64,000 bases of DNA, from positions 1 to 64,000 of the IMG/VR virus record IMGVR_UViG_3300035670_009931, one strand, 5' to 3'. This DNA is from a virus. Every line of letters begins with the position of its first letter. Position 1 is the first letter of the stretch. Both the position numbers and the translations under genes were made by a program. The notes under the pieces were generated by a model. The model made no database searches. It was given only the letters and a program-made list of their open reading frames with translations, and had not been told where the DNA came from. Below are positions 4,736 to 59,025 of the stretch, piece after piece.

Positions 4736-4741
4736 CAAGAT

Positions 4742-11548: not shown

Positions 11549-11664
11549 AGACATATATTTTATGTCTTGAGAAGAGGAGAGTTTATTCGCTACTCTAGAC
11601 CCTATATATTGTTGACCTGTCTGGTCACAGATTAACATGTATGTATATGGTCTAGCTATGCACA

Positions 11665-12459: not shown

Positions 12460-12570
12460 TTTGAAATTTCCTTTAAATGACAAAATTAAAAATAACTGCC
12501 GCAGATACAACAGCACCTAGAACAAAATACATAACACGACCAACAATATTCATGATAACTTCCTTTTAAG

Positions 12571-13213: not shown

Positions 13214-13228
13214 AGGATTCAGGTACTG

Positions 13229-13465: not shown

Positions 13466-14684
13466 ATTTTTCTTTATTAAAAATTAATAATGGAGATTGT
13501 CCATTAACTACATCCTTATTTATAAGTATTGATTTTAAATTTTTCTCAGCTAAATTCATTGCATCATATTGATATGGTAATAGGATTTTTTCCATAATGT
13601 TTTTTAAACCACGTGCATTTGTTTTTAACTCTTTTGCTTTATTTGCTATTTCTATTAAAGCGTCGTTTTCAAATTTAATATCAATTCCGTCCAACTTAAA
13701 AATATATTCATATTGATTTATTAAACTATTCTTCGGATCTTTTAAAATCCTAACTAAATCTTCAGTAGTTAATTCATCGACACTGGTTATCAAACCAAAT
13801 CTACCAATAAATTCTGGTATAAATCCGTATTGTATTAAATCTTTTGGCGTTACTTCTGTAAACTCAACTAAAGACTTTTCAGTAACTGTTGAAACAGCTG
13901 TATTGAATCCTATAGTTTTTGGTTCTTTTCTACTTTGTATTATTTTTTCTAAACCAACAAATGCACCACCACAAATAAAAAGTATATCAGAAGTATCAAT
14001 TTCCATTATATCAGAATTGGGGTGTTTTCTTTTTCCAGAATTAGGCACTCGTACAATATTTCCCTCTATCATTTTTAGCAAGGCTTGTTGTACACCCTCA
14101 CCACTTACATCTCTTGTAATTGATACGTTTTCTCCTTTTCTAGCGATCTTATCTATTTCATCTATGTAAACAATCCCTCTACTTGCTTTAGATAGATCAC
14201 CATCTGATTCATTAATTAATCTTGAAAGAATACTTTCTACATCATCGCCTACATATCCTGCTTCAGTTAAACTAGTAGCATCACAAATTACAAATGGTAA
14301 ATCTAAATATTCTGCAATCTTTTTAGCCAGCATAGTTTTACCAGATCCAGTTGGTCCTAAGAGTAAAACATTTGTTTTTTCTAGTTTTATAGATTTAGAT
14401 GGATTATTAATTCTTTTAAAATGTTGGCTAACTGCCACTGATAGGGTCATCTTTGCATTTTCTTGACCAATGATATATTCATCAAGATATTCTTTTATTA
14501 AAGAAGGATTTAGTAACTTTTTTGTATTTGGTAAATTTTTTACTTTTTCATCATCTAAAATATCTATGCACAGATCTACACATGAATTACATATTGCAGC
14601 GTATTCACCGACAATTAATTTTTCTACTTCTTCCTTATTCTTTCCACAAAAGCTACATGAATGTTCACTGTTTTTGCTCATCAA
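13446..14684 (-). CDS. clpX: ATP-dependent Clp protease ATP-binding subunit ClpX
   Basis: N-terminal C4 zinc finger (CSFCGK...CNSC), Walker A LLLGPTGSGKT and a ClpX-like IGF-type loop GFIPEFIGR. Confidence 0.85.
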   Translation of the reverse strand: MMSKNSEHSCSFCGKNKEEVEKLIVGEYAAICNSCVDLCIDILDDEKVKNLPNTKKLLNPSLIKEYLDEYIIGQENAKMTLSVAVSQHFKRINNPSKSIKLEKTNVLLLGPTGSGKTMLAKKIAEYLDLPFVICDATSLTEAGYVGDDVESILSRLINESDGDLSKASRGIVYIDEIDKIARKGENVSITRDVSGEGVQQALLKMIEGNIVRVPNSGKRKHPNSDIMEIDTSDILFICGGAFVGLEKIIQSRKEPKTIGFNTAVSTVTEKSLVEFTEVTPKDLIQYGFIPEFIGRFGLITSVDELTTEDLVRILKDPKNSLINQYEYIFKLDGIDIKFENDALIEIANKAKELKTNARGLKNIMEKILLPYQYDAMNLAEKNLKSILINKDVVNGQSPLLIFNKEKYEQKQK

Positions 14685-15063
14685 ATACTCTTTCTAAAAA
14701 TTTATTAATATCTGTGATTCTGTTTTGATTTAAATGATTAATTATTGCTACAAAATTTTCATCTGATGATTGATAAAAAAAGTTATTATTTGCTAACATA
14801 TAACTGGCTAATACATTTACTAAATGGTTTTCCGTATCTAAATCTATGAATTTATAATCACTCCGACTTACTGCGTATAGTAACCAAGAGATATTAGTTT
14901 CATTTGTAAAAACATAAAAATTATAATTTTCTTTTAATTCTATTTCTGACAAGTATTTAGTTACTTTTTCTTGATCTGAATCAGAAATGTTTATAAACAA
15001 AACACTTTTATTATTATTTTCATAAAAGTCTGGTGGAGTTATTAATGTTATTTTACCGTCCAT
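14665..15063 (-). CDS. Hypothetical protein
   Basis: Track ORF trimmed to the internal Met (MDGKITLI...) to avoid an 83-nt overlap with the upstream gene. Confidence 0.4.
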   Translation of the reverse strand: MDGKITLITPPDFYENNNKSVLFINISDSDQEKVTKYLSEIELKENYNFYVFTNETNISWLLYAVSRSDYKFIDLDTENHLVNVLASYMLANNNFFYQSSDENFVAIINHLNQNRITDINKFLERVFDEQKQ

Positions 15064-38238: not shown

Positions 38239-38774
38239 AACTTACAACTCAAACAATCTTGCTCATCATCATCTGGAATGACTATTTCATTGACAACATT
38301 ACTAGATGATGTTAATGTTGTTTTAGAACCCAATTTGTTAATTAAACTATAGTAGAAAGTTTTTAATCCCCATTTATATCCTAACATTAGATTTTTTGCA
38401 ATTAATGTACTCGGAACTTTCCCGTCTTTAAAATGTGCAGGATTATAAAACGTATTTGTACTAATACTTTGATCTATATATGCAGCAAGTACCGCAGCAG
38501 TTTTTAGATATTCAACACAATCTTTTTGATCCCACATTAGTTGATACCTATTTTTTAATTTTTTATATTCGGGGACAACTTGAACAAAACTTCCAGCCTT
38601 TGATTCTTTAACTGAAATCAATTCCATAGGAATTTCAATTCCATTAGTTGAATTTAAAACTACAGATGAGTTGTGAGATACACAACCATTTGGTAACGCA
38701 TATGCACCACTTTTTGTAGTGATATCATATGTTGGAACTACTTCAGTATGCCTATTAATTTTTTTTATTTTCAT
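38235..38774 (-). CDS. nrdA: nrdA C-terminal fragment: split-intein C-half (35 aa) fused to the RNR alpha C-extein
   Basis: MKIKKINRHTEVVPTYDITTKSGAYALPNGCVSHN carries intein blocks F/G (YDITT...NGCVSHN). It is followed by SSVVLNSTNGIEIP...IDQSISTNTFYNP...GYKWGLKTFYY...CLSCKL, which aligns with the NrdA C-terminus including the CxxC tail. It has its own GGAG RBS and ATG. Confidence 0.75.
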   Translation of the reverse strand: MKIKKINRHTEVVPTYDITTKSGAYALPNGCVSHNSSVVLNSTNGIEIPMELISVKESKAGSFVQVVPEYKKLKNRYQLMWDQKDCVEYLKTAAVLAAYIDQSISTNTFYNPAHFKDGKVPSTLIAKNLMLGYKWGLKTFYYSLINKLGSKTTLTSSSNVVNEIVIPDDDEQDCLSCKL

Positions 38775-39954
38775 TTATTTTCTCCATCAATTCATCGAGT
38801 GTTAAGGAACATTTCATACGCTTACTACAATTTTCTTCAACTAAAATCCATTCTAAATTTAATGGATTTCCTATAATTTCTGGGTTTATCCCGTCTAGAT
38901 AACCCTGCATTTTTGAATACATGTGATCGAGATGATATTCCCCTTTATGACGTCCTCGTTTACCCGGACATTCTGGTATTTTAGATAACGACTGTCTAGT
39001 GAATCTATCAACAGAAGCTGAGTAACCTTTAAATCCTTGATGTAATTCTTCTGCTAATTTACCGTATTCACGAAAACATGATGATTTCACCAGTCTTCTC
39101 TCATTATAGATACTTTCACCATTTTTACCATACTTATCCATACAAAATTTTAAACTTGAACCATCTTTTCTAGTGTTTATATTTTCTAGAATATTTTTTA
39201 TTTCTTCTTTGGTAAGACCCCTAGATTCCCAATATTCTTTGTGTAGACCAGAATACAACTTTTGAGTATCAGATATCATTTTTCTAGACTCATCCAAAGA
39301 ATAACCTCTTTTAATCCAAAAATCTACTGTACAACGATTAGCCTCTCTTTTGTATTTTTGGAATCCATCGATGCTATCATCCCAATAGTCAATATAATTT
39401 TTATGAAATCTATGAATAAATTTATGCTTTTCTCTACCCACAGTGTCGCCATATATTTCTATACACCTACTCAATGACAAGGATGTTTCATATTTCAACT
39501 TCTTTATTTTTTCAATAACAGCATCATCCGAAAGTCCTTTAGATACCCAATAAGATGGATCATATATATTAGGTTTATTCGTCAAATATTCTTTTTTGTG
39601 GGACTCCCAATTATTACCGTATTTAACTTTAAAGTATTCATCGCTATTACTCACTGCTTTATGTTTTTTTCTATAATTTAACCACTCGGTGAATCTAGAT
39701 GGATCGTACTCATCATCACTCAACCCGCGAACATATAACAAGAAATTTTTATCATTGATGAATCTAAAAATAGCATCAATAATATTTTTTCTGTCGTTTA
39801 ATGACAATCCATAAAATTTAGATATATCTTCGTCTGATGCAGCAGAAAGAAGAATATCCAATTCTTCTTTCGTTTTTACTTTATTCAATATTTTTTTAGG
39901 TTGGGATCTCGGTTTCCCCAAAATCATTAACTTCAACGACATCATCTCCTTCAT
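38755..39954 (-). mobile_element. Free-standing homing-endonuclease-like ORF (HNH-like C-terminus) inserted between the two nrdA halves
   Basis: 399 aa, in a third reading frame. It overlaps both nrdA fragments. The C-terminus HLDHMYS...GNPLNLEW...ENCSKRMK is HNH-like. Confidence 0.55.
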
Positions 39955-42151
39955 TTAATTCCCGAACGTGTATCCATTTTTTCTCATTATTGCGATTAAC
40001 CAACAATCTATGATTATCGGTGAGTTTCACTATTGATCCATCTTCAAATATAATCTCATTAACTGAGGCCATGCCATTATAATATATACTTGTTATAGAA
40101 TCTGCATTTCCATTTGGCCCAACAACAGAAATTTCATCTATTTTGTGATGACCGATTAAATTGGTAGCCTCTATTAATTCCCAATTTAATCCAGCCTTTT
40201 CACATAATTCATGAAAATTGGGTAACGTTCCGTCCAAAGTATTTATCTTATCTTCCCAAGAATGACAACTTTCTACAGGTGCTACAGCCATTAGTGTTGC
40301 ATTACGTATACCATATTTTAACATTTTTTCACGTAGGGGTTCCCAGTTTAATGAGGGTGTGAAATCAGTTAGTTCATTTACTCCATTACTTCTACGTTCC
40401 CAAGGAAATACTCCTTTGCCGTACCAAGTATGTTGACTACGAGTGCAAGCCCCTTTTTCTTGAGCTAGTTCAACACTCACTTCAGTCAAGTAATATGATT
40501 GATGTTCGGCCCACCTTTTTACCTCAGCCAAGCTAGTTGAGTCACCGTATTTAAAATTCCGTTTGGCATGCCAGTAAGCTAGATTTGTTATACCAATACC
40601 AAGTGGTTCAAACTCATCATTCGATAACTTACTTTGAACACTTAGAAAATCTTGATATCCCAATAAGTTACTTAAACTTCTTACCAATACTCTACATGCT
40701 TTACGCATATCTTGCGGATTTTTAAATACACCCCAATTTATACTTCCAAGTGTACATAACGCTATACGACCTGATTCATCTTCAATACGCTCAAATGGAC
40801 GATTAGGTAACAAAATTTCTAAACATAAGTTTGATTGATAGATAGGGTCTAGTTTAGTATCGAACGAACCTTGATTAATAACATTATCAATATTAACGAT
40901 ATAAATTCTACCAGTATCGGTTCTTTCTTTTAATATACCATTCTTAAAAATTTCTTCAGCAGATATAACTTTTTTCTTTTTGGATGAATCTTGTTCATAT
41001 TTTACATATAAGCTTTCAAAAAGTTTGCTATCTCTATAGTATGCTTCGTATAAATCTTGAACTTCATGTGGATCAAATAAAGTTATATTCTTCCCTTGTT
41101 TAAATCGTTTCCAAAATAATCCACTAATAACAACGCCATAGTCCAACTGACGAACTCTTGTTTCTTCAGTGCCTTGATTATTTTTGAGAACAATCAAATC
41201 TTCAAATTGATAATGCCATATTGGGAAGAATACCGTGCAACTTGCATTTCTAATTCCACCTTGAGAACAAGAACGAAGATCTCCATACCACTTCTTTAAG
41301 AAAGGTACTAGTCCAGTATGTTTAATTTCTCCATTGCGAATTGGTGCTCCTAATGGCCTAATTCTACCTATTTCTAGGCCAATTCCTGCACGTTTTGATG
41401 CATATTTTGCCATCATTTCACCTGTGGCAAAAATTGAATCTAATGTATCATCACTAGAAATAAGAACACAGGAACTGAATTGTTTAGTGGTTGTCCCTAG
41501 ACCAGCAAGAACAGGAGTTGCTAAAGTGAAATGTCCATCTGATGCACATTCATAATACTCTTTTACAAACTTTAGTCTTTTATCCTTACTTTCAGCATGG
41601 AATGCGGTAGCAGCAGCTATTGCATACCTTACTTGTGGAGTTTCATAAATCTTGCCAGTTGCTCTATTTTGAACTAGATACTTTTCACACAATTGAGCAA
41701 TCGCTGCATATGTATAATTTTCATCCTTAGAATGATCTATAAAAAGATCAATAATATTCCATTCTTCTTCGGTATACCACTCCATAAGTTCAGGGGTATA
41801 CATACCTAATTCTACGTTTTTCTTTACTATATTGTATAAAGTATCAGGTTCATATTTTCCATATACTTCTTTTCTAAGCATACTTAAACGCTGTCTACCT
41901 GCGACATACTGATAATTTACATTATTAATGTCTTCGTTTTCGCTTTCATCAATCAAACTGACCATAGCCTGTAGTAACAACTTGTCAATTGTTTCAGTTG
42001 TCATTTTATCATGAAATTGAAGTTGTGCCCGTATTTGAATCATAGACGGACTAACAGAATCAATACCTTTACAACAATTATCAACCTGTCTTTGAATTTT
42101 ACTTATATCCAATGGGACGATTTCCCCATCACGTTTAACTACCGTAATCAT
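39896..42151 (-). CDS. nrdA: nrdA N-terminal fragment: RNR alpha N-extein (about 630 aa) fused to the split-intein N-half (about 121 aa)
   Basis: Class Ia catalytic residues are present (SNLCLEI, ALCTLGSIN). The extein ends ...LMAVAPVES. It is followed by CHSWEDKINTLDG (block A) ... SIVKLTDNHRLLV (block B, TxxH), then a stop. Confidence 0.8.
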   Translation of the reverse strand: MITVVKRDGEIVPLDISKIQRQVDNCCKGIDSVSPSMIQIRAQLQFHDKMTTETIDKLLLQAMVSLIDESENEDINNVNYQYVAGRQRLSMLRKEVYGKYEPDTLYNIVKKNVELGMYTPELMEWYTEEEWNIIDLFIDHSKDENYTYAAIAQLCEKYLVQNRATGKIYETPQVRYAIAAATAFHAESKDKRLKFVKEYYECASDGHFTLATPVLAGLGTTTKQFSSCVLISSDDTLDSIFATGEMMAKYASKRAGIGLEIGRIRPLGAPIRNGEIKHTGLVPFLKKWYGDLRSCSQGGIRNASCTVFFPIWHYQFEDLIVLKNNQGTEETRVRQLDYGVVISGLFWKRFKQGKNITLFDPHEVQDLYEAYYRDSKLFESLYVKYEQDSSKKKKVISAEEIFKNGILKERTDTGRIYIVNIDNVINQGSFDTKLDPIYQSNLCLEILLPNRPFERIEDESGRIALCTLGSINWGVFKNPQDMRKACRVLVRSLSNLLGYQDFLSVQSKLSNDEFEPLGIGITNLAYWHAKRNFKYGDSTSLAEVKRWAEHQSYYLTEVSVELAQEKGACTRSQHTWYGKGVFPWERRSNGVNELTDFTPSLNWEPLREKMLKYGIRNATLMAVAPVESCHSWEDKINTLDGTLPNFHELCEKAGLNWELIEATNLIGHHKIDEISVVGPNGNADSITSIYYNGMASVNEIIFEDGSIVKLTDNHRLLVNRNNEKKWIHVRELNEGDDVVEVNDFGETEIPT

Positions 42152-44400: not shown

Positions 44401-45096
44401 TCAGGCGTGATACTTATAATAAGTTTCTACTTTTTCCAACCATCTATCTTGATACTTGTTAAAGTCTTTCGGCCATAAATCAAATTGTTGATATTGTAAA
44501 TCTCGGGTGCACATAAAAATATGACCTTCTCTAATATCAGTGCCATATGTATTATTATGGCACATAATATATGCCACTAGCTGAGTTTTATAGCCATCAA
44601 CCCATTCTTCTTTTTTTAGCTTATTAGACTGTTTATAGTCACAAATACTGGGTTTTCCTTGATAAACCGCAACTAAGTCTGTTGTTCCAGAGTATAAACC
44701 AGAATAATATAGACTTTGTTCATACGCCCAAATTTCATCTATTTTAGAGAATGCATTCTCGATGATGAGATCGGCCATTTTATTTGATTGGACATGAACC
44801 AAATTACCACCCGGTTGTCGTTGCACTCCGGTTATAAAGTTTTCTATGTTTTTATGCATAGATGTCCCCACACCGGATGCCTCTTTAACAATTTTGGCGG
44901 CTTTATCTTCACCTATTCGTTTTTTCCACTCTAAAATAGCACTTTTATCTTCCGTGGCGCTAAGAATCGTGGTAACACTTGGAAGTTTTTCTCCTTCCGG
45001 TGTCTGATATGATCTTTTATTAGTTACAGGATCATTTATTTGAACACAACCTTGGTAGTCAAATTTTTTTACGTATGGTGGAGGATTTATAGTCAT
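44401..45096 (-). CDS. PD-(D/E)xK nuclease (RecB/Cas4-family-like exonuclease)
   Basis: Motifs TTDLV (D), ICDYKQ (DxK) and QLVAY (QxxxY). Confidence 0.5.
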   Translation of the reverse strand: MTINPPPYVKKFDYQGCVQINDPVTNKRSYQTPEGEKLPSVTTILSATEDKSAILEWKKRIGEDKAAKIVKEASGVGTSMHKNIENFITGVQRQPGGNLVHVQSNKMADLIIENAFSKIDEIWAYEQSLYYSGLYSGTTDLVAVYQGKPSICDYKQSNKLKKEEWVDGYKTQLVAYIMCHNNTYGTDIREGHIFMCTRDLQYQQFDLWPKDFNKYQDRWLEKVETYYKYHA

Positions 45097-45127: not shown

Positions 45128-45502
45128 TCAAATTTTTGATGAAATAGCTTTTTTAGCGGCTCTAGACGCCATATTATCTACAGTGGTTGATCCACTTTGA
45201 TCTGTTGGCATCGCAGGTGAATTTGCTTGATTTTTTGTTTTGATGTATACTTTTTCATTTTCAACATCAATATCTTTAATTAAATTACCATTGGGGTCAA
45301 ATTCATTTTGCCATTGTATTAATGTGTCTATATTAGAAATACCATATTGATCACTACCTGCCATTCGCTTAATAGTGTCAAAGTCATAAACTAATGTATC
45401 GCCTTTTTTAGTGGCATTATTTGCCTGACCCTGTAGTACCTTAAGGATATTTCCTATAGGACCAGGATCAGGTTTTACATCAAGAATTTCAAATAGACGC
45501 AT
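45128..45502 (-). CDS. Hypothetical protein
   Basis: 124-aa ORF. Confidence 0.45.
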   Translation of the reverse strand: MRLFEILDVKPDPGPIGNILKVLQGQANNATKKGDTLVYDFDTIKRMAGSDQYGISNIDTLIQWQNEFDPNGNLIKDIDVENEKVYIKTKNQANSPAMPTDQSGSTTVDNMASRAAKKAISSKI

Positions 45503-46794
45503 TATTGTGATAGTTTAGCAAGTAATATATGAGATTCACGTAACTTTTTTCTATAATTACTTTCTCTTAATTCTCTACCTGTATCACCTTCACCAGCCGC
45601 AGCATCGCTTGCTGCAAATTCGTCTGGGCCAGCAGATGCTCCCGCTTCTGGATTCATCATATCTGGAGATGTTGGAGTTATTTCTTCTCCCGGCTCTCCA
45701 CCCATTGGAACTTCTGGTGTTTCTTCTCCTGCCAATTGAGCTATTGCTTTACTAATAACTTCCCGCTGAGCGTTTAAAGTTGCCAATGTTGTAGCTAATG
45801 CAGGTCCAACAGCCTGCTTAAATGCCATTGATTGTTGTGCTCCAAAGTTATGACGAATCTCATCAGATAATTCAATCATTACCTTAGTTTGATATTGACC
45901 AACTTTTTGCATCCAGCTAGTATAATCATTTGCCATATCACCGGCAGCAGTAATAGTGTTGGCTCTTTCTTCCTCGTCTTCATTCAATAAACGTTCTATA
46001 TTCTCGTTTACCATTCTTACATAGGTGCGATATAAAGATTCTTTTACTGGTTTCTTTTTTAATTTTGCCAATTCAACATTTTTTTCTTTACTATTAGGTG
46101 CTTTCTTTACAGCAGTTTTAGCTTTTACCGGTTCTTTAGTTTTCTTAGGTTTCTTTTCTGGTAAACCTTTGTGCTTAGTGCTTGCAAATTTCTCTGCTTC
46201 TTTTCCAGTCATGGATTTAGCAGCTTTTGCAACTTCAGGGCTTGCAGGTTCTTCACCCTTTTTCGCAGCATGAACCATTCCCATGAATTTTTGCTGTTTT
46301 TTGCTAACAGCTTTTTCTGCGACCATTTCATCGTCGGCATGTTGTTTGGTCTTTTTAACAGCTTCTTTGAATGGCTTTCCAGACTTAGCAGCAGCTTTTG
46401 CACGACTGCCCCATACTTCGTCTTTGTTGGTTTCTATTTTACCATCACCATCGTAATCTTTTTTTGCCATTGTTTTTTTTGATGCAGTTTTTTTACGTGC
46501 TTCAGAAATACTTGCTGCTGTTTTTTTATTTGAGTTTTCACCTAACATTTCTTTAATCCTTGTGTTTACAAGATCAAGCATAGCTTTATCTTTTTGGTAG
46601 CTTTCATTATTTAACAAATCGTTGAACTTAGAACCATTTTCATGATTAAAAATTTTTGTTCTAAGTTTATTTCTTATATCTTCCAGTTGTTCTCTGTTAT
46701 ATGGGGAAACATTTACTCTAACGCCGAAATGTTTATTAATGTTTTCCTCAATCATTTTACTATTTAATTTGGAATAAAAAATAGAAGTTTTCAT
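45502..46794 (-). CDS. Lysine-rich hypothetical protein with an EF-hand-like DYDGDGKIE loop
   Basis: 430 aa. Long basic K/A/E-rich centre and acidic C-terminus. Possibly a core or scaffold-type protein. Confidence 0.45.
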   Translation of the reverse strand: MKTSIFYSKLNSKMIEENINKHFGVRVNVSPYNREQLEDIRNKLRTKIFNHENGSKFNDLLNNESYQKDKAMLDLVNTRIKEMLGENSNKKTAASISEARKKTASKKTMAKKDYDGDGKIETNKDEVWGSRAKAAAKSGKPFKEAVKKTKQHADDEMVAEKAVSKKQQKFMGMVHAAKKGEEPASPEVAKAAKSMTGKEAEKFASTKHKGLPEKKPKKTKEPVKAKTAVKKAPNSKEKNVELAKLKKKPVKESLYRTYVRMVNENIERLLNEDEEERANTITAAGDMANDYTSWMQKVGQYQTKVMIELSDEIRHNFGAQQSMAFKQAVGPALATTLATLNAQREVISKAIAQLAGEETPEVPMGGEPGEEITPTSPDMMNPEAGASAGPDEFAASDAAAGEGDTGRELRESNYRKKLRESHILLAKLSQ

Positions 46795-46825
46795 TGGTGT
46801 TCTTTCTCAGTATTATTTTAATTAT

Positions 46826-47278
46826 TTATACGAAAGTGCTCAGTTTGTTAAACTGTTCGTTAATTTTACCTAGACATCTTTGTTTTTTGACAGTAGCAAT
46901 ATCAGACTTCATCTTTCTTATCTCCAAAGTTTCAATATTTTTTTTCTTTGATCTGTTTTTTAACTGTTCCTCAAATAAAGAATATCCATAGTTTCTGTCA
47001 AGCTCAAGAATATTTTTATCCATGAACTTACCCAATGCTAAACTATTTGCAATTAATATTGCCGACTGTGGTAAATTTATGTTGTCTACCACAATATTAT
47101 TAGAAGTATTGTATATTGAATAAAAATTGTTTTCTTTTTTTATGAAATAAAATCCAATTCTTATAGAACCATCATCTTCTTGTATAGGTATAACGAAACC
47201 TTTATTTTTTAAATTATTTTTTACTTTTACAGATATTGTAAAAATTTTATCCCAGATTTCTTTTGATATATCGTTCAT
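46826..47278 (-). CDS. Hypothetical protein
   Basis: 150-aa ORF. Confidence 0.45.
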   Translation of the reverse strand: MNDISKEIWDKIFTISVKVKNNLKNKGFVIPIQEDDGSIRIGFYFIKKENNFYSIYNTSNNIVVDNINLPQSAILIANSLALGKFMDKNILELDRNYGYSLFEEQLKNRSKKKNIETLEIRKMKSDIATVKKQRCLGKINEQFNKLSTFV

Positions 47279-47463
47279 AATCTTTTCAAAGTATTGTTAT
47301 CATTACTTATACTATACAAACCTTTTCTAACTAAATTTTGCGCTAGCCACAAATCATGATCATCCAATGAGGATAATCTAGCGGTTGGATATTTGTCTAC
47401 GAAAGACTTTTCTTCATTAGTTAATACAATCGGTATACCAGAAATTAATTCATATAATTTCAT
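47275..47463 (-). CDS. Hypothetical protein
   Basis: 62-aa ORF coupled to neighbours by 4-nt overlaps. Confidence 0.35.
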   Translation of the reverse strand: MKLYELISGIPIVLTNEEKSFVDKYPTARLSSLDDHDLWLAQNLVRKGLYSISNDNNTLKRL

Positions 47464-47891
47464 GATTGTTTTTTAATTCCCATAGATTGAAGCTGTTGTA
47501 GCATTTGGCTGTTCTGTGGATCTTTAGTATCTAATGAAAATACTGCATTATCCATCTTAAACTTTAATACATTTGGATCATTCGATATAACTGAATCTAT
47601 TCTTGTTCCAGCAGGTATGTTTACTGGTTTTTGAATATTCGTAGTATTTTGTTGGGGTTTACTTACTGTGCTTGTCCCTTGAGTACCAGATGTTCCCATT
47701 GGCTGCGGTGATGTACCCGCTTGGTTAGATTGTTGTGTTGCACCCGATTGATTAGCTTTCTGAGCTGTTTGTTGAGGTTTCTGTGTTGATTGAACAGTTT
47801 GTCCAGTCTCTTTTCCTTTTTGTAAAACATTTGCTATGGTAGTAACCATATTACTTTGTTCTCTAATATAAACTAGCTCTTTAATTTTCAT
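47460..47891 (-). CDS. Gln/Thr-rich hypothetical protein
   Basis: 143-aa ORF with a low-complexity Q/T-rich centre. Confidence 0.4.
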   Translation of the reverse strand: MKIKELVYIREQSNMVTTIANVLQKGKETGQTVQSTQKPQQTAQKANQSGATQQSNQAGTSPQPMGTSGTQGTSTVSKPQQNTTNIQKPVNIPAGTRIDSVISNDPNVLKFKMDNAVFSLDTKDPQNSQMLQQLQSMGIKKQS

Positions 47892-47892
47892 A

Positions 47893-48309
47893 TTAATATA
47901 TCTTAAAAATTATATTTTTCAATTTCGGATCATGACAATCAAAAATTGGTATATCAATATTTATTGTTTCTGTCAATTTTTTAATAATAGGAACTTGATG
48001 TATATCATTTGGTAATAATCCAATTTCATTATTATCAGAAGACTTATAGACACCTGCTCTATCTGGAGAAAATTTAAAAGTCCAGACGCTATTTTTACCT
48101 TTATATAAGGAGCCAAATCCTAAATCTTTTATATCTACTGTTTCTACTGTTGGTCCAAAATCATAATTAATAATAGATTTAATTTCTAGGCATTGAAGTA
48201 ATGTAATAAAGTTTTTATGCTGATTAAATGCTATATTTAATTCATCACTGTCTCTTCTTACGTTAGTCTGCGTAATATCAATAAGTGTTTTTATTTCTAT
48301 GTATTCCAT
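47893..48309 (-). CDS. Hypothetical protein
   Basis: 138-aa ORF. Confidence 0.45.
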   Translation of the reverse strand: MEYIEIKTLIDITQTNVRRDSDELNIAFNQHKNFITLLQCLEIKSIINYDFGPTVETVDIKDLGFGSLYKGKNSVWTFKFSPDRAGVYKSSDNNEIGLLPNDIHQVPIIKKLTETINIDIPIFDCHDPKLKNIIFKIY

Positions 48310-48399
48310 AATATACCTTGTTAATTTTTAGATATTTATGGAAAAAAGAAAAGGGGTATATAAAATACCCCTTTGATTAATTTAACTTAGTTAATTAAA

Positions 48400-48831
48400 T
48401 TAGGAAATTACGAATGCAGCACCGGCTGCAACTGTTGTTCCAGATACATCCATTGTGCTACCACCAGCAGTAGGAACTGCGGTGCCTAGAGCACGAATGA
48501 TCTCTTGTAAACCAGGCTGGGTTGCGCTACCAGTCGTAGCAGCAAATGTTGCGTGTCCATCTACAATTAGATGAATAACACCACCACTTGATGCTGGAAC
48601 ATAGTAAGCCAAAATACCACTTGGGCAAACTCTTAGGATGGTCTCAACAACTCCACCTAAACCACCATTTACACCAGCAGCCATTTCACCCTGTAGATCT
48701 TGGGCTGAAGCACTACCATTCTTTACTGTTACTAAGAAAAACTTTAAATTTCCACCAAGTTGGGCACCAGCAACGCCGTTGATAACGCCTTCTACACCAA
48801 CTCCACCGTGAACTCTATCTATTCCTGCCAT
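48400..48831 (-). CDS. Gly/Ala-rich hypothetical protein
   Basis: 143-aa ORF. GC content is visibly higher than the neighbouring DNA. Confidence 0.4.
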   Translation of the reverse strand: MAGIDRVHGGVGVEGVINGVAGAQLGGNLKFFLVTVKNGSASAQDLQGEMAAGVNGGLGGVVETILRVCPSGILAYYVPASSGGVIHLIVDGHATFAATTGSATQPGLQEIIRALGTAVPTAGGSTMDVSGTTVAAGAAFVIS

Positions 48832-48913
48832 TTTATTTCTCCTTAAATCTTTTTATCTGTTGGCTAACAGATTTTCATATGATTATTTAGTAAAAAATTT
48901 AAAAAATACGGTT

Positions 48914-49213
48914 TTAGGAATCATTTTTCAAATTACCATCTATAACTTTAAGACGTTTCTTAGTTTCTTTATCTTCTTTAATTCGTTTGATTCCTCTTAC
49001 GAATTTGGCAGAATTATAAGTTCGTATACTTCCTATTAATCTTTTCTCAAGTTCAAAAGATTCTTCTTCACTATAAGTTTCTTTTATTAATTTTAATAAA
49101 TTTATCGCACCATCAATAATATGTAAAGCTCTTGATTCTATTATATCTTCATTATTCTTTTTTATGTTAATAGAATTTAATTCTTCAAGTATACTACGAG
49201 TCGTTTTTTTCAA
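48914..49213 (-). CDS. Hypothetical protein
   Basis: 99-aa ORF. Confidence 0.4.
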   Translation of the reverse strand: MKKTTRSILEELNSINIKKNNEDIIESRALHIIDGAINLLKLIKETYSEEESFELEKRLIGSIRTYNSAKFVRGIKRIKEDKETKKRLKVIDGNLKNDS

Positions 49214-50067: not shown

Positions 50068-53064
50068 TTATATTTTTCTGATTAAACTTTTTAGTCTACT
50101 TAATTCTTCATTGGATTCATTCATTGGGAATCCTAATCTCTTTGCTAAAGCCTGATCTTCTGGATCTTTAAAGTATGATACTGGTGGTTTTGGTCCACCT
50201 ACTTTTCTCACCATATTGTTTAATATATATGGATCTTGTATATTGGGGTTTCCACCATCTTTTGTCAACCACTGTTTTTGTGGTTCAGTGAAATTAAAAC
50301 CTTGACCAGCAGTGTTTTGAGCGGGAGGGGTCTGTGGACTTTGCTGTTGCTGTTGTACTGGTTGAGATCTTGCCTGTTGTTGAGTAGCTAGTTGAGTAAT
50401 TTGTTGATTTACTTGATCGTTAGTTAAATTGGCAATACTAGCCCTTGGTTGACCTAAATCAACTGTGGGAAATCCTATTCTTTTAGCTATCGCTTGATCA
50501 TCAGGATCTTTAAAGTATGATACAGGAGGCATTGGACCACCTGCTCTCTTGACCATATTCCATATAATATATGGATCTTGTATATTGGGTTTCCCACCAC
50601 TTCTATACAACCATTCCTTTTGTGCATCAGTGAAATTAAAACCTTGTGGCGTAGTTCTTTGTACAAAATCTGGTGCTAATGCAGAACCTTGTTGCACAGA
50701 TGCCCCTAGGTTTCCTGTAGATAATTGTGATCCACCTGTTTTAAGACCAGTACCAGACGGAGGTGTAGAAACAGCTTGTCTTTCTGGTTGTGACGTTGTA
50801 TTAACAGTTGCTACATCACCCGGTCTTGAAGTTACCTGTGCTGGTGGTAAGTTTGTAGTTCTACTTATAATATCTCTCTCATACTGTTCATTATCATCGT
50901 ATGGTAAGTTCGTAGTTCTACTTATAATATCTCTCTCATACTGTTCCCCATCATCGGATACTGTAGCATTAGATGGAGTACCACCAGCAGCAGTAGTATC
51001 AGTCGGAGATCCATATCCATAAGTATACTGATCGATTGTATCACCACCACCAGTATCACCAGCAGCAGTAGTAGTACCACCAGCAGCAGTACTACCAGCA
51101 GTACCACCAGCAGTACCACCAGTATTTGAACCTTGAGCTTGATCAGAACCTCCACTAGTTAGTGCCGCAGCACCAACTGTTGCCGCCCCCGCTGCTAATG
51201 CACCGTTATCACTAATTCTTCCAACTTGAACAGGAGTAGGCGGTGCGCCAGTAGTAGTTTGCATAGGAGCAGTAGCAGTACCAGCGGCACGTCCACCACC
51301 AGTGCCAGCACCACCAGCAGCACCACCGGTAGCAGTACCACCGGCAGCACCACCGGTACGTCCACCGGCAGCAATAGTACCAGCAGCACCGCCAGCAACA
51401 GTACCAGCAGTACCAATAGCACCACCACCAGTACCACCAGCACCAGTACTACCACCAGCAGCGCCAACACGTCCAGCAGCACTAGTACCACCACCAGCAC
51501 CGGTACCACCAGCAGTACCACCACGTCCAGCAGCACCAGCAGCACCAGTACCACCACCAGTGCTCAGACTAAAAGGATTACTTGAGGCCCTTACAGCAGC
51601 GTTTGGATTATTAGCTTGGGCAATTACAGCAGCTTCCCCTGGAGTTCTTGCACCCTTTCCTGCATTTTGTTGTACGATTATACCACCAGGTGTGGTAGTG
51701 GTACCAACAGTACCACCAGCAGTAGGAGTAGTAGCAGCAGGAGTAGTAGCAGGAGTAACAGGCCTAGCAGGGGCAGGAACAGCAGAAGCATCTGCTGCTC
51801 TTGCAGCGGCTTGTTGCTTTCTTATTCTTTCTGCTTCTCTTTCAGCAGTCCCCCAGATAGCCGGAGGTGAACCTCCAGTTGCAGCACCTGCTGCTGGGGT
51901 TTTACCTGCGTTTTTGGCAGCATCTACTGCTGCATCTGCGGCTTTAGTTCCAGCTTTTACAGCATCTGTGGCTTTATCGCTATTTCTAACTATTTTAATA
52001 TCATTTAATAAATCATAAAGATCAACTATCGTGTTTAATTTTTTAGCACCTGGAAAACTTGGGGGAATACGTGGTAGTTGTACAGCCGCCTCATCAATAA
52101 ATTTTAATTCATTTCTTAAAAAATCTATTTGATCTGATTCTGAAATTGGTTTTAATTTTTTCAAATGCTGATCAGGTGTTTCATTTTTATATCTAGTTGA
52201 ATATTGATCAACTTTTCCTGTACGAGGATTTTTCCAAGTAAATGTTGGTTGACCAGCTTTTCTAGCATTAAAGAATGCTCTCTCAAAATCAGACATTTTC
52301 TTTGGAGTTTGTGCTGGTGTTGGAGTTGACGCAGAAGGTGTAGGTTGGCTGGTAGCAGCAGCGGATGTACTAGGTGTATTTGGCAATAATGCACTACCAC
52401 CTCCAGCTACAGTACCAGCAATTGCTCCAGTTCTAGCCCAATCTTTTGCACCTAATCCAGTTGATTGAGGAGGAGTAACAACTGATCTACCGACAGGAGC
52501 TTTTGCATTAGGATCTATTGGTGGTACATTATCTGCTCTAGTTTTAATGTCTTTTACATCGTCTGGTTTTACAGAAGATGGACTAAATTTACCAGTAGCT
52601 GGGTTTCTGCTGGTAGACATCATTGGGGCTATTTTTCTAGCTAATTTAAGAACTTCATTTACATCAATATCATCTTCTTCAGAAATAACTGGAGGGTTTT
52701 CTGGATCTTCTTGCTCTGGAGGCACATAATTTGGAGATCCAGGTCTATTATCATTGTAATAATCTAATGCCATACCAACAGGCATTGTTACCGGATTGGT
52801 ATACGCGGCACCAGATAAAACTGATATAACTGCACCACTTCTATCACCTGCTTGCCATCTATTCCATGCATCCATAAAACTAAGTGCTGTTCCCACTCCA
52901 CCTAAAAATTTAGCACCAAATTTGCCAGCGTTCTTGGCAATAGTTTTTCCTCTTGAAGCAGGAGGAGCAGTCGTAGCAGCAACACCACCATTTTCATTTA
53001 ATATTTTAGAATTATTTTTATCAATCTCTTTTATAGTGTCAACTAAACTGTTCCAATTATTCAT
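50068..53064 (-). CDS. Large (about 999 aa) low-complexity Gly/Ala/Thr-rich protein with C-terminal tandem repeat domains; probable virion or cell-surface-interacting protein
   Basis: Start placed at MNNWNS... (RBS AAGGA), clear of the upstream gene's stop. Two roughly 60-aa repeats (GFNFTxxQKxWL...NPNIQDPYI...PPVSYFKDPxDQAxAKRxGFP) and a 19-aa repeat (EQYERDIISRTTNLPYDDN) occurring twice. Confidence 0.6.
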   Translation of the reverse strand: MNNWNSLVDTIKEIDKNNSKILNENGGVAATTAPPASRGKTIAKNAGKFGAKFLGGVGTALSFMDAWNRWQAGDRSGAVISVLSGAAYTNPVTMPVGMALDYYNDNRPGSPNYVPPEQEDPENPPVISEEDDIDVNEVLKLARKIAPMMSTSRNPATGKFSPSSVKPDDVKDIKTRADNVPPIDPNAKAPVGRSVVTPPQSTGLGAKDWARTGAIAGTVAGGGSALLPNTPSTSAAATSQPTPSASTPTPAQTPKKMSDFERAFFNARKAGQPTFTWKNPRTGKVDQYSTRYKNETPDQHLKKLKPISESDQIDFLRNELKFIDEAAVQLPRIPPSFPGAKKLNTIVDLYDLLNDIKIVRNSDKATDAVKAGTKAADAAVDAAKNAGKTPAAGAATGGSPPAIWGTAEREAERIRKQQAAARAADASAVPAPARPVTPATTPAATTPTAGGTVGTTTTPGGIIVQQNAGKGARTPGEAAVIAQANNPNAAVRASSNPFSLSTGGGTGAAGAAGRGGTAGGTGAGGGTSAAGRVGAAGGSTGAGGTGGGAIGTAGTVAGGAAGTIAAGGRTGGAAGGTATGGAAGGAGTGGGRAAGTATAPMQTTTGAPPTPVQVGRISDNGALAAGAATVGAAALTSGGSDQAQGSNTGGTAGGTAGSTAAGGTTTAAGDTGGGDTIDQYTYGYGSPTDTTAAGGTPSNATVSDDGEQYERDIISRTTNLPYDDNEQYERDIISRTTNLPPAQVTSRPGDVATVNTTSQPERQAVSTPPSGTGLKTGGSQLSTGNLGASVQQGSALAPDFVQRTTPQGFNFTDAQKEWLYRSGGKPNIQDPYIIWNMVKRAGGPMPPVSYFKDPDDQAIAKRIGFPTVDLGQPRASIANLTNDQVNQQITQLATQQQARSQPVQQQQQSPQTPPAQNTAGQGFNFTEPQKQWLTKDGGNPNIQDPYILNNMVRKVGGPKPPVSYFKDPEDQALAKRLGFPMNESNEELSRLKSLIRKI

Positions 53065-53074
53065 GATGTAATCC

Positions 53075-53881
53075 TTAATAGTCAATATAATTCTTAAATT
53101 CATCTGGGTCAGATGATGCTTGATAAAATACAATATCCTGTGTATCGAATTGTATTCCATTTTTTTTCTGCCAACTATATCCACCACCAGTTTCATATAT
53201 ATGATATGGTATATCTATTGTGTAAACACCTTCAGAAAACTTGGCAGCAACGTATACATGTTGTTCATATGAGCAACTTACCGTTGTACATTCAATTCCT
53301 TTATTACTTAGTATTTCACATACATCATCTGCTATAAGATGACATATTCCACCACCAGCATAGGTATCAACGTCTTCTTCATCCCAATCATCATATGTTT
53401 TTTGAACTTTAATCAAAACACTTGGCATCAATGATTTTGCCAATTGTACAGATGGTAAATTCTCATTTTCATCGTCTTCTAAACTTTCAACCAATGGTTT
53501 GCTTTTTATATATTCTGGATACTTTTTATTGAATATTCTCATTACTACACCAGCAATTTCATTGGCTTGATTTTCTTGAGGGCTACCTGTTCTACCACTA
53601 TCATTATCTAATTCATCATTAATGTCTTGTTTATAATGAACTAGTTCATGTGCTATAGTTCGTAAAATGTCAACAGGATGTCTATTAGCTAAACCAACAT
53701 GCAATGTTTTTGCATTGATATCATATTTTCCAAAAGTTGGTTGATCCGGACTATCAATTTCTTTTGAAATTTTTATTTTAGGTAAAGAATCTATACCTAT
53801 AACTTTTTTTGCAATAGGCTTAAATTTGTTGAAAATATCAACGAAATCATTTTTGTTTTCAACAAGTTCTCTATATCTCAT
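53075..53881 (-). CDS. HExxH-motif protein (putative zinc metallopeptidase-like)
   Basis: IAHELVHYKQ motif in a 268-aa ORF. Confidence 0.4.
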   Translation of the reverse strand: MRYRELVENKNDFVDIFNKFKPIAKKVIGIDSLPKIKISKEIDSPDQPTFGKYDINAKTLHVGLANRHPVDILRTIAHELVHYKQDINDELDNDSGRTGSPQENQANEIAGVVMRIFNKKYPEYIKSKPLVESLEDDENENLPSVQLAKSLMPSVLIKVQKTYDDWDEEDVDTYAGGGICHLIADDVCEILSNKGIECTTVSCSYEQHVYVAAKFSEGVYTIDIPYHIYETGGGYSWQKKNGIQFDTQDIVFYQASSDPDEFKNYIDY

Positions 53882-53886: not shown

Positions 53887-53894
53887 TATTTATA
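53887..53894 (-). promoter_or_regulatory. T4-type late-promoter motif TATAAATA immediately upstream of the 53881 start
   Basis: Minus strand reads cTATAAATAaattcATG. Confidence 0.3.
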
Positions 53895-54131: not shown

Positions 54132-54563
54132 TCAACACCAAGTTTGTTTTGCTTCTCCATAATATTCTCTAGCTAAACCATTAGCAATTAAACCCTGACG
54201 AACACTTTGTCCATTTACTAATATATCACCCAACACGCGACCTCCAAACTTATCCCATCCATAAAGAACTACTTGGAATTGTCTTCCCTGTGCCACAAGT
54301 TGTTTGGTATATTGACTAGCCATTTCTCCACGTTGTGCTTCTTGCGCACATTGTGCTCTATGACCTTTTTCTGGAGTATCAACTCCAAATATTCTGACGG
54401 CCAATTCTGGTTTTAATGGTGCAGGTAAAAATGGAGCAGAAATAACTATAGTATCCCCGTCACTTACTCTTATAATCTGTGTATCATAAACCACACCTTT
54501 GGGTTGTTTTTGTGCAAATACCAAAAATGGTACGATTAATAATAATGCTAATAGTTTTTTCAT
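54132..54563 (-). CDS. Secreted thermonuclease (staphylococcal-nuclease/SNase family)
   Basis: Signal peptide. SNase motifs RVSDGDTIVI and FGVDTPEK. Confidence 0.7.
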   Translation of the reverse strand: MKKLLALLLIVPFLVFAQKQPKGVVYDTQIIRVSDGDTIVISAPFLPAPLKPELAVRIFGVDTPEKGHRAQCAQEAQRGEMASQYTKQLVAQGRQFQVVLYGWDKFGGRVLGDILVNGQSVRQGLIANGLAREYYGEAKQTWC

Positions 54564-54574: not shown

Positions 54575-55894
54575 TTAAGTTGTTTCTTCAAAATTAATGC
54601 TGGCCCAGCCTTTTAAATTATTACCACTGTGTTTCATGGCAATAACAAATTCATATCTAGTTCCATCAAATGTGTTTCTTGTAAGTTGGCGTTGGAATGG
54701 AAATTCTGCCAATGAAGGAGAAGAACTAGACTGATTTGAACTTGCAATATAACCAACCTCAACTGTAGTACCAGTGTTTACAAAACCGGTTGCTGATAAA
54801 TTATATTCTACACTGCTATCGTCACCTATACTGATCCATGTTCCCCCAGTGGTAATTGATTTAATTAATACTTCCCAACGAAACATTGCTGACTCAGCAA
54901 CTGTTACACTAAAATTTTGTGGGAATACAATAGCACCTAGTCTATCTGCTTTTAATCTAATACTAACCAATGGGTATAAAATTTGAGTTCCATTACCACT
55001 CATCACATATCCATCTAATCCTGTTCCTATACTCCGTGGACGACCTCTAAGTTCATAACCACCTTCTGAAATAACTGTAGCACATATGTCTTTTAAAACA
55101 CTAGTTGAAGTAGTTGCAGTAGTATTTTCTATTTCTGTTCTTATTGGTAAACATGCTGTGGTCATATAGGTAGAAGTAGTTCCTGTTTCATTTGCATGAT
55201 GAAATATATGACAGGGAATAAATTGACCTTTTATAACAAATCCACACTCTACACTACCTACACCCAACCATTCAATATTAATATAAAGTATTTGTGATAA
55301 ACTACTATCCAAAACGATTTTATCTGCTCCTGTTCCGTCTAAGGTAGTTATATTCCAGTTGTCTTTCGCAACTCTTGTTTCTACAACAGATCCTGAAATT
55401 TTACTTTTTTTAACAAAGTAAACTGTGCTGCCATCTCGTTCTAAATAAATCCCATTATCACTATCAAAATAACCTACACGTTGTCGTAAGCCAGTTTTAG
55501 CAGGACCTAGACAAAATGTTCTCAATATTAATAGACTTTTACCAGGTTGATAAGCAAATACACGATCACTTTCTCTATAGACTGCTGCATTTGTTTGAGT
55601 TCCGATAGATAATGCTACCAAACCTTCATTATTTAAAAATGTGGCGGTACTTAAAGTTCCTGTCGTATAAGTATTAACACGTTCTTGATCGCTATATCTA
55701 TAAAAATTATCAAATAAGGTAAATGGTTGACTAACTCTAAATCTACCAAATGCATCACTGGCAGTTGGACCTAATGTTGTTCTTATTATAGGTTCGCCAA
55801 GAACATTATATTCCATTGCTTTATGAAGATCCAACAAGTTACTTTCTTGCGGATGAGCATAATTGGTAGAATTTAAATAACGATCAACTGGCAT
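54575..55894 (-). CDS. Probable virion structural protein
   Basis: 439 aa, beta-rich, located in the structural gene block. Confidence 0.4.
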   Translation of the reverse strand: MPVDRYLNSTNYAHPQESNLLDLHKAMEYNVLGEPIIRTTLGPTASDAFGRFRVSQPFTLFDNFYRYSDQERVNTYTTGTLSTATFLNNEGLVALSIGTQTNAAVYRESDRVFAYQPGKSLLILRTFCLGPAKTGLRQRVGYFDSDNGIYLERDGSTVYFVKKSKISGSVVETRVAKDNWNITTLDGTGADKIVLDSSLSQILYINIEWLGVGSVECGFVIKGQFIPCHIFHHANETGTTSTYMTTACLPIRTEIENTTATTSTSVLKDICATVISEGGYELRGRPRSIGTGLDGYVMSGNGTQILYPLVSIRLKADRLGAIVFPQNFSVTVAESAMFRWEVLIKSITTGGTWISIGDDSSVEYNLSATGFVNTGTTVEVGYIASSNQSSSSPSLAEFPFQRQLTRNTFDGTRYEFVIAMKHSGNNLKGWASINFEETT

Positions 55895-58086: not shown

Positions 58087-59025
58087 TTATCCGAAAGATA
58101 CTAATTGTCCAAGCACAGTACAGGAATTTATATTACCTGTATTAAGTAATGTAAATGACATTACATCAACACTATTTGAAACACCGGAAGGTATTATTCC
58201 ACCCTGCCAATTAATATTTTGATAATTACTATCGATGCTTAATTGAGTAGGGATATAAGCAGTAGCCCCTTGATTTAATAATAAAATTATAATTGTGGAA
58301 TATCCAGAATCTAATGTTAAATTAGTTAAATTAACTGTAAAAGTATTTGATATATCTGTATGATTGAATACTTTTGATATACTTGCATCATGATCTACTA
58401 TCCCAGATGCATTTGTTATACTTGCAAAAGATTCTTGTACTTGATTAATAACTAAAGAATTACCAACATATAATTTTCCGCCTATTCCAACTCCACCAAC
58501 CACAGACAATGCGCCGGAATCAGTAGATGAAGACTGTGTATCATTGGTTATTGTTATAGAATTATCTGTAGTATTTCCATATCCAACCACGGTATCTAGA
58601 TCAGCAACAGACCATATAGTCCAGGTATTCCCTTCTTGTACAACTTGTGTACCTGTTCCATTTTGTATTACTATACTAAGACCAGAAACACCTTGACTTC
58701 CTTGAATACCCTGACTTCCTTGAACACCTTCTAATCCTTGGAAACCCTGTGCACCCTGTACACCTTGACTTCCTTGAAACCCCTGAAAACCTTGATACCC
58801 TTGATTTCCTTGGAAACCTTGATATCCTTGCGAACCTTGTATTCCTTGGTGACCTTGTATACCTTGAACACCTTGATGTCCTTGTGATCCCTGTACTCCT
58901 TGAAACCCTTGGCTACCCAATTGTGCTTGACCTAACCATTTAGCACCATCAAATGTATATGTTACATTGTTAGTACCGAGATATACGGTACCGGTACTAG
59001 GGTTTGATGGAAAATCTAAAACCAT
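58087..59025 (-). CDS. Collagen-like-repeat tail-fibre protein
   Basis: About 30 consecutive G-X-Y triplets (GSQGFQGVQGSQGHQG...). Confidence 0.6.
   Translation of the reverse strand: MVLDFPSNPSTGTVYLGTNNVTYTFDGAKWLGQAQLGSQGFQGVQGSQGHQGVQGIQGHQGIQGSQGYQGFQGNQGYQGFQGFQGSQGVQGAQGFQGLEGVQGSQGIQGSQGVSGLSIVIQNGTGTQVVQEGNTWTIWSVADLDTVVGYGNTTDNSITITNDTQSSSTDSGALSVVGGVGIGGKLYVGNSLVINQVQESFASITNASGIVDHDASISKVFNHTDISNTFTVNLTNLTLDSGYSTIIILLLNQGATAYIPTQLSIDSNYQNINWQGGIIPSGVSNSVDVMSFTLLNTGNINSCTVLGQLVSFG

Follow-up and report, generated by a model that had tools for sequence, protein, structure and literature searches.

What kind of protein is encoded by the long, partly GC-rich gene at positions 50068-53064 of the IMG/VR virus record IMGVR_UViG_3300035670_009931, and what may it do for its phage? 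The stretch analysed here comprises positions 1 to 64,000 of this record (hereafter the window) and is phage-like: besides virion structural proteins, LamG baseplate-like proteins and a collagen-like tail fibre, it codes for an ATP-dependent ligase, a GH19 + ParB_N protein and a ribonucleotide reductase in which one segment resembles an intein. The product of the gene (hereafter the target) is a mosaic, presumably disordered for the most part, of an uncultured aquatic large myovirus, in which five short conserved elements (leader, helical module, pre-module segment, a module in two copies and tag) are set on long spacers rich in Gly, Ala, Thr and Pro or in Gln. An earlier note on this DNA had drawn attention to a low-complexity centre and to two sets of repeats, and had missed three elements common to a protein family found only in metagenomes: a conserved leader at the N-terminus, a helical module rich in Gly and Ala, and a tag at the C-terminus. 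The repeats in themselves are ordinary, being slippage-prone low-complexity DNA within a real gene. What is unusual is that all the conserved pieces fall into families that lack annotation, are known only from metagenomes and share terminal tags; mosaic proteins of the virion-associated or polyvalent kind are already known. The reading that we prefer, tentatively, is that of a virion-associated mosaic protein acting at the host envelope, with the terminal tags as assembly signals.

The gene is located on the minus strand (50068..53064), as are consequently all of its elements described below, and consists of 998 codons and a stop in an intact frame of 2997 nt; the 999 aa given by the earlier note should be corrected to 998 aa plus the stop. 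The longest form of the open reading frame (ORF) on this strand extends over 50068..53196. The ATG at 53064 is the credible start, because it lies 11 nt past the stop of the upstream gene (53075-53881) and has a Shine-Dalgarno-like AAGGA 7 nt 5' of it, while the longer start would produce a 120-nt overlap with the upstream gene. GC content reaches 0.528 at 51001-52000 compared with 0.25-0.37 in most 1-kb bins of the window, and aa 361-700 (50965..51984), a core recognised by its composition and by overlapping repeats with triplet-multiple units, consist of Gly, Ala, Thr and Pro by 70%, which bears out the central region of these residues previously described in an AT-rich genome. The GC content of third codon positions (GC3) is 0.06-0.26 in every 50-codon block of the whole gene. 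Since GC3 is uniformly native, the GC excess comes from Gly, Ala, Thr and Pro codons that keep the AT-ending bias of the phage, and horizontal transfer of foreign DNA was dropped as a source of the GC-rich island. The spurious long ORFs that had been reported in four other frames are also present, as stop-free runs of 128, 262, 78 and 122 codons. The gene is real and under selection, given the uniform GC3, a ratio of nonsynonymous to synonymous substitution rates (dN/dS) of about 0.2 and the orthologs with the same order of elements on contigs L006, L035, L007, L009 and L034.

The C-terminal part of the target harbors two copies of a module with a QDPYI motif. Copy 1 (aa 808-867, 50464..50643; GFNFTDAQKEWL...NIQDPYII...PPVSYFKDPDDQAIAKRIGFPT) was recognised as a repeat and by the family profile, and copy 2 (aa 922-981, 50122..50301) as a repeat of copy 1; between them lies a Gln-rich linker (aa 868-921, 50302..50463) with short repeats detected by TRF at 50341-50415. 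The earlier note had described two diverged copies of about 175 nt and 80% identity at this place; the two diverged copies stand, and we measured 194 nt (50126-50319 and 50468-50661) at 77% identity. The 60-aa module cores share 78% of their nucleotides and 72% of their amino acids with a dN/dS of 0.22, while copy 1 and the L006 ortholog give 0.19, and these values indicate that both copies are kept by purifying selection. The family consensus reads F-x-F-(S/T)-P-E-Q-E-K-W-L-G-G-A-N-R-Q-D-P-Y-I-L-x-R-M-P-G-x-K-P-P-V-S-Y-F-K-D-P-x-D-Q-A-I-A-K. The two copies of the target fit a motif of about 55 aa, F-x-F-[ST]-P-x-Q-x-x-W-L-G-G-A-x-x-Q-D-P-x-I-x-x-R-M-P-G-x-K-P-P-x-S-Y-F-x-D-P-x-D-Q-x-x-A, and both bear a 4-residue insertion after W-L and another one before G-P, as in L006. 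Structure prediction resulted in three helices (~55 aa); the model had no significant structural neighbour and matched no known fold, and the module profile found nothing in the PDB. The module of about 60 aa without an assigned role that had been noticed earlier is thus retained, with three predicted helices and no known fold matched.

Word-indexed searches led to eight metagenomic proteins that have the C-terminal module of the target in common with it and to P0009, a PG_binding_1 protein that shares an N-terminal segment. The module profile, run against 1.84 billion cluster representatives, retrieved 147 proteins (88 at E < 1e-10), and one further profile-based homolog search gave 2 matches only. 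Module loci were found 27 times in IMG/VR and 26 times in JGI/ENA metagenomes, all with a GC content of 0.36-0.54. Several paralogous module-bearing genes occur per genome, and the module can take any position in the protein. The contigs bearing the family code for gp32, UvsX-like and UvsW-like proteins, a T4-type large terminase and a family B polymerase; the terminase of L005, the one tested, is closest to those of PA5oct-type jumbo myoviruses (54%).

Concerning the partners of the module, a Pfam scan of 87 module-bearing proteins detected domains that nearly all belong to the cell-wall type, namely PG_binding_1 in 21, LysM in 11, PG_binding_3 in five and SLT, GH19 and VgrG3_C in one each; the others were DUF5872 in two, DUF3008 in one and weak matches to aRib and to two LysM-like families, each seen once. 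In P0055, P0068 and the ORF at 10827-14888 of L009, LysM, tandem repeats, a transglycosylase or GH19, a PG_binding-like domain, the module, Gly/Ala helical repeats and DUF5872 stand in one chain; the L009 protein (1353 aa; LysM, transglycosylase, module and DUF5872) adjoins the ortholog of the target. The cell-wall or glycan-binding role proposed in the earlier note holds as an association of the module's relatives, but the target itself has no recognisable cell-wall-binding domain: PF01471, PF09374 and PF01476 (PG_binding and LysM) gave no match even at E ≤ 10 on separate segments. PG_binding_1 and LysM, the commonest fusion partners, are small, like the predicted module, and the PG_binding_1 fold is also helical; however, the target matches neither of them. 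An action at the envelope is suggested because partners that bind peptidoglycan and lack secretion signals could reach their ligand only by delivery with the particle or through lysis lesions. The module may be considered a candidate new envelope-binding domain.

A shortened form of the module was also observed. P0110-P0149 and L061:1036-1767 are proteins of about 200 aa that carry only its first half (FSPEQEKWLGGADRTDPYILARMR) at the N-terminus and share a conserved C-terminus, S(S)RADGIA.RGKTRG. Such half-module proteins (e.g., P0113) adjoin SU10_adaptor-like and tail genes in podovirus-like contigs.

Both termini of the target are conserved as well. Residues 1-24 (MNNWNSLVDTIKEIDKNNSKILNE; 52993..53064) form an amphipathic helix ending in I-L-N-E. 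This acidic leader aligns with the MDLK-type leader (MDLKALIAKMDQIEAKQILNE) present in 44 of the 97 full-length family proteins, and its end ILNE (residues 21-24) is found in P0010 and P0058 too. The pattern [ILVFM][ILVFM]xE occurs within the first 45 aa of 47/97 family proteins against a background of 6% of internal windows, while none of the module-family proteins has a signal peptide-like N-terminus. At the other end, aa 982-998 (NESNEELSRLKSLIRKI; 50071..50121) fit a tag, (K/N)ES...(D/E)ELxR(I/L)(V/K)xL..., that forms the very C-terminal end in 28-41 of 102 family proteins compared with a background of 5%; in the target it reads NES...ELSRLKSL, and this terminus has a basic, amphipathic character. 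The same type of tag is present on proteins without the module (P0009, L019 1230-2099 and L028 8257-9603), and a tag-like tail is common to the window gene at 45502-46794 and gp247 of phage PA5oct. The termini can be regarded as address signals because two short peptides conserved across otherwise unrelated proteins are most simply explained by a common recognising partner, a part that the prohead core plays in T4.

Known systems offer a precedent for such signals. T4 internal proteins have a short N-terminal capsid-targeting sequence which is removed by gp21 (PMC9958956), and the prohead protease of SPN3US cuts after Glu with a preference for Ser at P1' (PMC10052503). The junctions ...ILNE|N/S and ...NE|S match the preference of the SPN3US protease at the level of the motif; at the same level, the paralogs share a leader with an (L/I)-x-E end, as in T4-type head-internal proteins. 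The target family resembles the T4 internal head proteins (IPI, IPII, IPIII, Alt) and the ejection proteins of SPN3US and phiKZ in a leader conserved among unrelated proteins with a hydrophobic-x-Glu end, in genes situated among virion genes and in a proposed exit from the particle at infection. In contrast, there is no sequence similarity to these proteins, and the family has a conserved C-terminal tag and many members with peptidoglycan-binding domains, which are absent from the T4 internal proteins. Another short peptide, SIA..L(L/I/V).E(F/S)FGY, recurs in many family members (P0002, P0006, P0009, P0021, L041, L044), in many cases directly ahead of the module or at one of the termini; none was found in the target.

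After the leader comes the Gly/Ala-rich helical module (aa 28-110, 52735..52983; ...GVGTALSFMDAWNRWQAGDRSGAVISVLSGAAY...), common to P0009 and about 20 family proteins. It is N-terminal, central or C-terminal among about 20 module-bearing proteins and hence shuffled, and P0009 unites it with PG_binding_1. It has no Pfam match; AlphaFold2 (AF2) modelled it as three helices with low confidence (pLDDT 61) and a soluble-looking surface. A reading as a membrane or glycine-zipper hairpin was rejected, since the maximum 19-aa Kyte-Doolittle mean is 1.16, below the membrane criterion of about 1.6, and no Pfam family supports it. Two minor segments complete the series: a mini-motif SDFERAFFNARKAGQPTFTWKNPRTGKVDQYSTRYKNE (aa 257-296, 52177..52296), weakly evidenced as seen in the sequence, which has no match in Pfam or PHROGs and resembles by eye F..A...A.KAGKPTF..NGK of L040, and a conserved segment just before module copy 1 (aa 758-807, 50644..50793; SQPERQAVSTPPSGTGLK...GSALAPDFVQRTTPQ), common to the orthologs on L006, L035, L009 and L034.

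The closest ortholog-bearing contig described here, L006 (2.8 kb), is collinear with 47.9-50.7 kb of the window, and the ortholog on it carries the tag and the two copies of the module; the gene at 48400-48831 shows 94% protein identity in L006, being far more conserved than its neighbours. L035, L007, L009 and L034 contain more distant orthologs of 540-606 aa, in which the order is leader, helical module, spacer, low-complexity region, a PERP...SAL.PDF..RT segment and one module. Set beside them, the target with its 998 aa is an expanded version: its Gly/Ala/Thr core is larger, the module and a 19-aa unit are duplicated, and aa 250-360 form an additional segment. Elsewhere, database searches remained empty. 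Pfam and PHROGs gave no match on the whole protein and on five segments, a PDB sequence search found no relative, and no catalytic domain was detected by these three resources. Among 50,697 GenBank phage records, nothing was found by megablast with 48-56 kb or by tblastn with the target, nor by tblastn with the consensus module at E ≤ 1; an exact-sequence look-up of the target had no match, and a scan of IMG/VR for close relatives of the whole protein found none. The module was not found in GTDB (185,579 species of bacteria and archaea, a single genome per species), which speaks against a prophage or cellular origin. Parts of the target recur only in aquatic metagenomic phage contigs.

The genomic neighbourhood connects the target to virion genes. 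The next downstream gene on the same strand (48914..49213, minus, 99 aa; phrog_11854 at 3e-14) is a homolog of gp259 of the Pseudomonas jumbo phage PA5oct (Arenbergviridae), with 43% identity over 77 aa. PA5oct gp259 is annotated as a virion structural protein and heads a block of structural genes verified by mass spectrometry. Further on, a gene of 430 aa with a DUF3008 segment (45502..46794, minus), the one with the tag-like C-terminus, matches in its C-terminal half gp247 (E = 6e-11), a protein verified by mass spectrometry, and the gene at 48400-48831 has a weak likeness to gp251 through an N-terminal KVHGG motif (E = 1e-3). The minus-strand region 45502-49213 is thereby collinear with the PA5oct block gp259...gp247, 48914-49213 and 45502-46794 being homologous to it in the same order and orientation. 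By contrast, PA5oct has helicase and primase genes upstream of gp259, where the window has the target, and neither PA5oct nor any other of the deposited phages searched has a homolog of the target or of the module. On the upstream side, a gene of 439 aa (54575..55894, minus) belongs to the virion structural family phrog_1645 (3e-108) and matches annotated virion structural proteins of cyanophages and HMO-2011. Baseplate-like (LamG) and tail-fibre-like genes are established 3-10 kb upstream of the target, and a collagen-like gene lies at 58087-59025 (Collagen Pfam score 1.6e-16).

Directly upstream, a metalloprotease-like gene of the HExxH type (53075..53881, minus, 268 aa; motif IAHELVHY, phrog_87 at 2e-5, weak Peptidase_M78 match at 0.017) is probably co-transcribed with the target. 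Its homolog is located about 5 kb upstream of the target orthologs in L007 and L009. In L003 and L002 a 267-aa gene lies upstream, but the idea of a conserved synteny was dropped, as those genes are not homologous to the HExxH gene. A TATAAATA box (53887..53894, minus), the T4 late-promoter consensus, stands 5 nt before the ATG with which the HExxH gene starts, and further boxes are found ahead of the GH19+ParB and DUF3008 genes. Of the nine boxes in the window, eight are on the coding strand, and five of those eight are intergenic, although intergenic DNA makes up 9.7% of the window. Strand and position of the boxes are suggestive; as a statistically enriched motif the box was rejected, with nine observed against 16 expected.

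From these data we infer presence in the virion, a signal function of the termini together with their cleavage, and an action in the periplasm or at the cell wall. According to the reading that we tentatively prefer, the target would be expressed together with the surrounding virion genes. Its leader and C-terminal tag, which are borne by dozens of otherwise unrelated proteins of this phage group, would serve as assembly or packaging signals, with removal after Glu by a T4-type prohead protease as a possibility. The mature protein would travel in the particle and be freed at infection, when the folded modules would contact the host cell envelope and the flexible spacers would give them reach; the spacers change length rapidly through replication slippage.

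Several points weigh against this reading. The target and its family have no direct virion evidence, and as the family is absent from the 50,697 deposited phage genomes, no proteome covers it. A prohead protease gene was not seen in the 64-kb window, the head module lying outside the window and the fetched flanks. Proteins rich in K, E, I and L often contain the short (I/L)xE motif, and the P3 residues of the C-terminal site are variable. The helical module falls short of the hydrophobicity of a membrane hairpin, and its model has a low confidence. The TATAAATA box is not over-represented overall (9 vs 16 expected), and the neighbourhood is mixed, including a nuclease (54132-54563), an exonuclease (44401-45096) and the ribonucleotide reductase.

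A bolder version of the preferred reading, which we regard as doubtful, is that leader and tag constitute a hitherto undescribed two-ended address system of a clade of uncultured aquatic large myoviruses, loading peptidoglycan-binding, peptidoglycan-cleaving and spacer-like cargo (the target among it) into the particle, that a Glu-specific prohead protease trims both ends and that the module is a new envelope-targeting domain. If this is true, myoviruses would possess an ejected periplasmic toolkit comparable to the ejection proteins of podoviruses. Should the tags be packaging signals, the internal or ejected proteome of uncultured phages would become predictable from sequence alone, and the tags could provide handles for foreign cargo in large capsids, a use to which the T4 capsid-targeting sequence has already been put.

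The conserved termini are also compatible with an internal core or scaffold-like filler of the head that has a role in assembly only and is degraded or lost in maturation. The conserved tags that end or start at Glu at both termini, the processing of T4 core proteins by gp21 and the ability of low-complexity proteins to serve as space fillers are all in line with it. Such a fate is nevertheless unlikely for the target: its 340-aa core is so poor in Glu that a Glu-specific protease would leave it intact, and the purifying selection on the modules as well as the fusions with peptidoglycan-binding domains point to a function after assembly.

The composition of the core brings up a second alternative, a surface fibre, whisker or adhesin, whose Gly-rich core would be ordered (polyglycine-II or beta-solenoid) and whose modules would be receptor-binding tips. 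Gly-rich motifs are found in some phage adhesins, the tail-fibre and baseplate-like genes are as near as 3-10 kb upstream, and a variable centre with conserved ends is also typical of host-range proteins. Collagen-like and Gly-rich phage fibres and PE-PGRS proteins share with the target Gly/Ala-rich repeats in multiples of a triplet and length polymorphism. In the extreme Gly-rich stretch, aa 500-600 (51265-51567), where Gly, Ala, Thr and Pro amount to 88%, no Gly-X-Y periodicity was found, however (12, 18 and 14 Gly in the three registers). In contrast to collagen-like fibres, the target thus has neither a Gly-X-Y register nor a match to the Collagen family of Pfam, and a collagen-like structure was dropped. 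No fibre, collagen or beta-helix family was matched in Pfam or PHROGs, and a core that is 70-88% Gly, Ala, Thr and Pro has hardly any residues with which to build a hydrophobic interior. Furthermore, several paralogous module proteins are coded per genome with modules anywhere in the chain, and the partners of the module bind peptidoglycan, which lies beneath the outer membrane. We therefore consider a fibre rather unlikely. The fibre-like virion protein suggested in the earlier note loses its fibre half, while the virion half is upheld by the context of the gene, flanked by homologs of virion proteins of which some were verified by mass spectrometry in PA5oct.

A third alternative places the action at the cell wall and dispenses with the particle: a non-virion protein of the lysis phase would build up in the cytoplasm, exit through holin lesions and assist endolysins by targeting or by membrane disruption with its cationic C-terminal helix. 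The family does co-occur with PG_binding_1, LysM, SLT and GH19, a GH19 gene of 210 aa is located near family members in L003, and the target combines the lack of a signal peptide with an amphipathic, basic C-terminus. However, no holin, endolysin or spanin gene stands next to the target, the neighbours are homologs of virion proteins, and the conservation of the tag sequence across unrelated proteins suggests specific recognition over general amphipathicity. A mostly disordered protein of 998 aa would also be atypical for a lysis accessory, and we consider this alternative quite unlikely compared with a virion-associated protein.

The repeats of the target proved to be variable among relatives. 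Upstream of module copy 1, a 57-nt (19-aa) unit is present in 2.0 tandem copies (50845-50901 and 50902-50958). The tandem duplication reported in the earlier note is confirmed, but it is not exact: the copies match at 52/57 nt (91-92%), and 15 residues (EQYERDIISRTTNLP) are identical between them with one synonymous difference within. All the features of repeats and composition seen earlier far exceed chance. L007, L009 and L034 are near-identical strains in which the first ~250 and the last ~190 residues of the protein are almost invariant, while the centres differ by one or two copies of the 10-aa unit GGTTGARPVS and by scattered substitutions. L007 has an independent 27-aa tandem duplication at the place equivalent to that of the 19-aa duplication of the target. 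L006 lacks the 19-aa (EQYERD) duplication and has five copies of PPAPST where the window has Gly, Ala and Thr, the contig stopping inside the PPAPST repeat. The suggestion that the repeats are hotspots of length variation is accordingly well supported by this comparison of copy numbers, the centre varying between invariant ends. In L008 the ortholog (4123-6061) is frameshifted in the low-complexity region, giving one ORF with the helical module (4123-5595) and another with the QDPYI module (5372-6061); the split marks either a pseudogene or a misassembly of the repeats. An assembly artefact or a misread non-coding low-complexity stretch in the window itself is highly improbable, since, although the relatives' contigs break (L006) or frameshift (L008) there and the region is hence hard to assemble, the 2997-nt frame is intact with native codon bias, conserved modules flank the repeats on both sides, and independent orthologs come from several samples with a dN/dS of 0.2.

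The architecture recalls the polyvalent proteins of phages and conjugative elements, which in the general account of Iyer et al. (2017; PMC5512222) are mosaics that draw on a pool of small modules in variable order. P0055, P0068 and the L009 protein at 10827-14888, with their enzymatic domains, and the GH19 + ParB_N protein of the window are polyvalent-like. The target is unlike polyvalent proteins with at least two enzymatic or effector domains, since it has no such domain, consists mostly of spacer and carries modules outside Pfam. For large uncultured aquatic phages, this locus shows that some of their many unannotated proteins derive from a small vocabulary of modules and tags recombined on disordered spacers.

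Some further genes of the window and of the related contigs were recorded. The GH19 + ParB_N protein (27547-30063, minus, about 830 aa) joins a GH19 chitinase/lysozyme-like domain (aa 87-304) to a ParB N-terminal domain (aa 662-748) in an architecture of the polyvalent type, and a TATAAATA box is located 4 nt upstream of its ATG at 30036. The nuclease gene at 54132-54563 (minus) is staphylococcal-nuclease-like with a signal-peptide-like N-terminus (MKKLLALLLIVPFLVFAQ), has virion structural genes on either side and shares 78% identity with an ORF of L033. The large subunit of the ribonucleotide reductase (39896-42151, minus) has a C-terminal Intein_splicing match (aa 683-739) below the Pfam cut-off and its end is overlapped by the ORF at 38755-39954; this end may be an intein or a homing-endonuclease remnant. 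ARAGORN reported a tRNA with a four-base anticodon (ggac) at 518-592 (minus), by a tRNA-Tyr at 84-167, which could be frameshift-suppressor-like or a miscall. Finally, L009:3831-7835 encodes a protein of 1334 aa that adjoins the ortholog of the target and has about ten regularly spaced Q-G-V-A-E-G motifs between units of ~50-150 aa; its residues 200-237 match phrog_16028, which also matches a 79-aa gene after P0113 in L061. With this spacing of motifs, it looks like a polyprotein with repeated protease sites of the Glu type.

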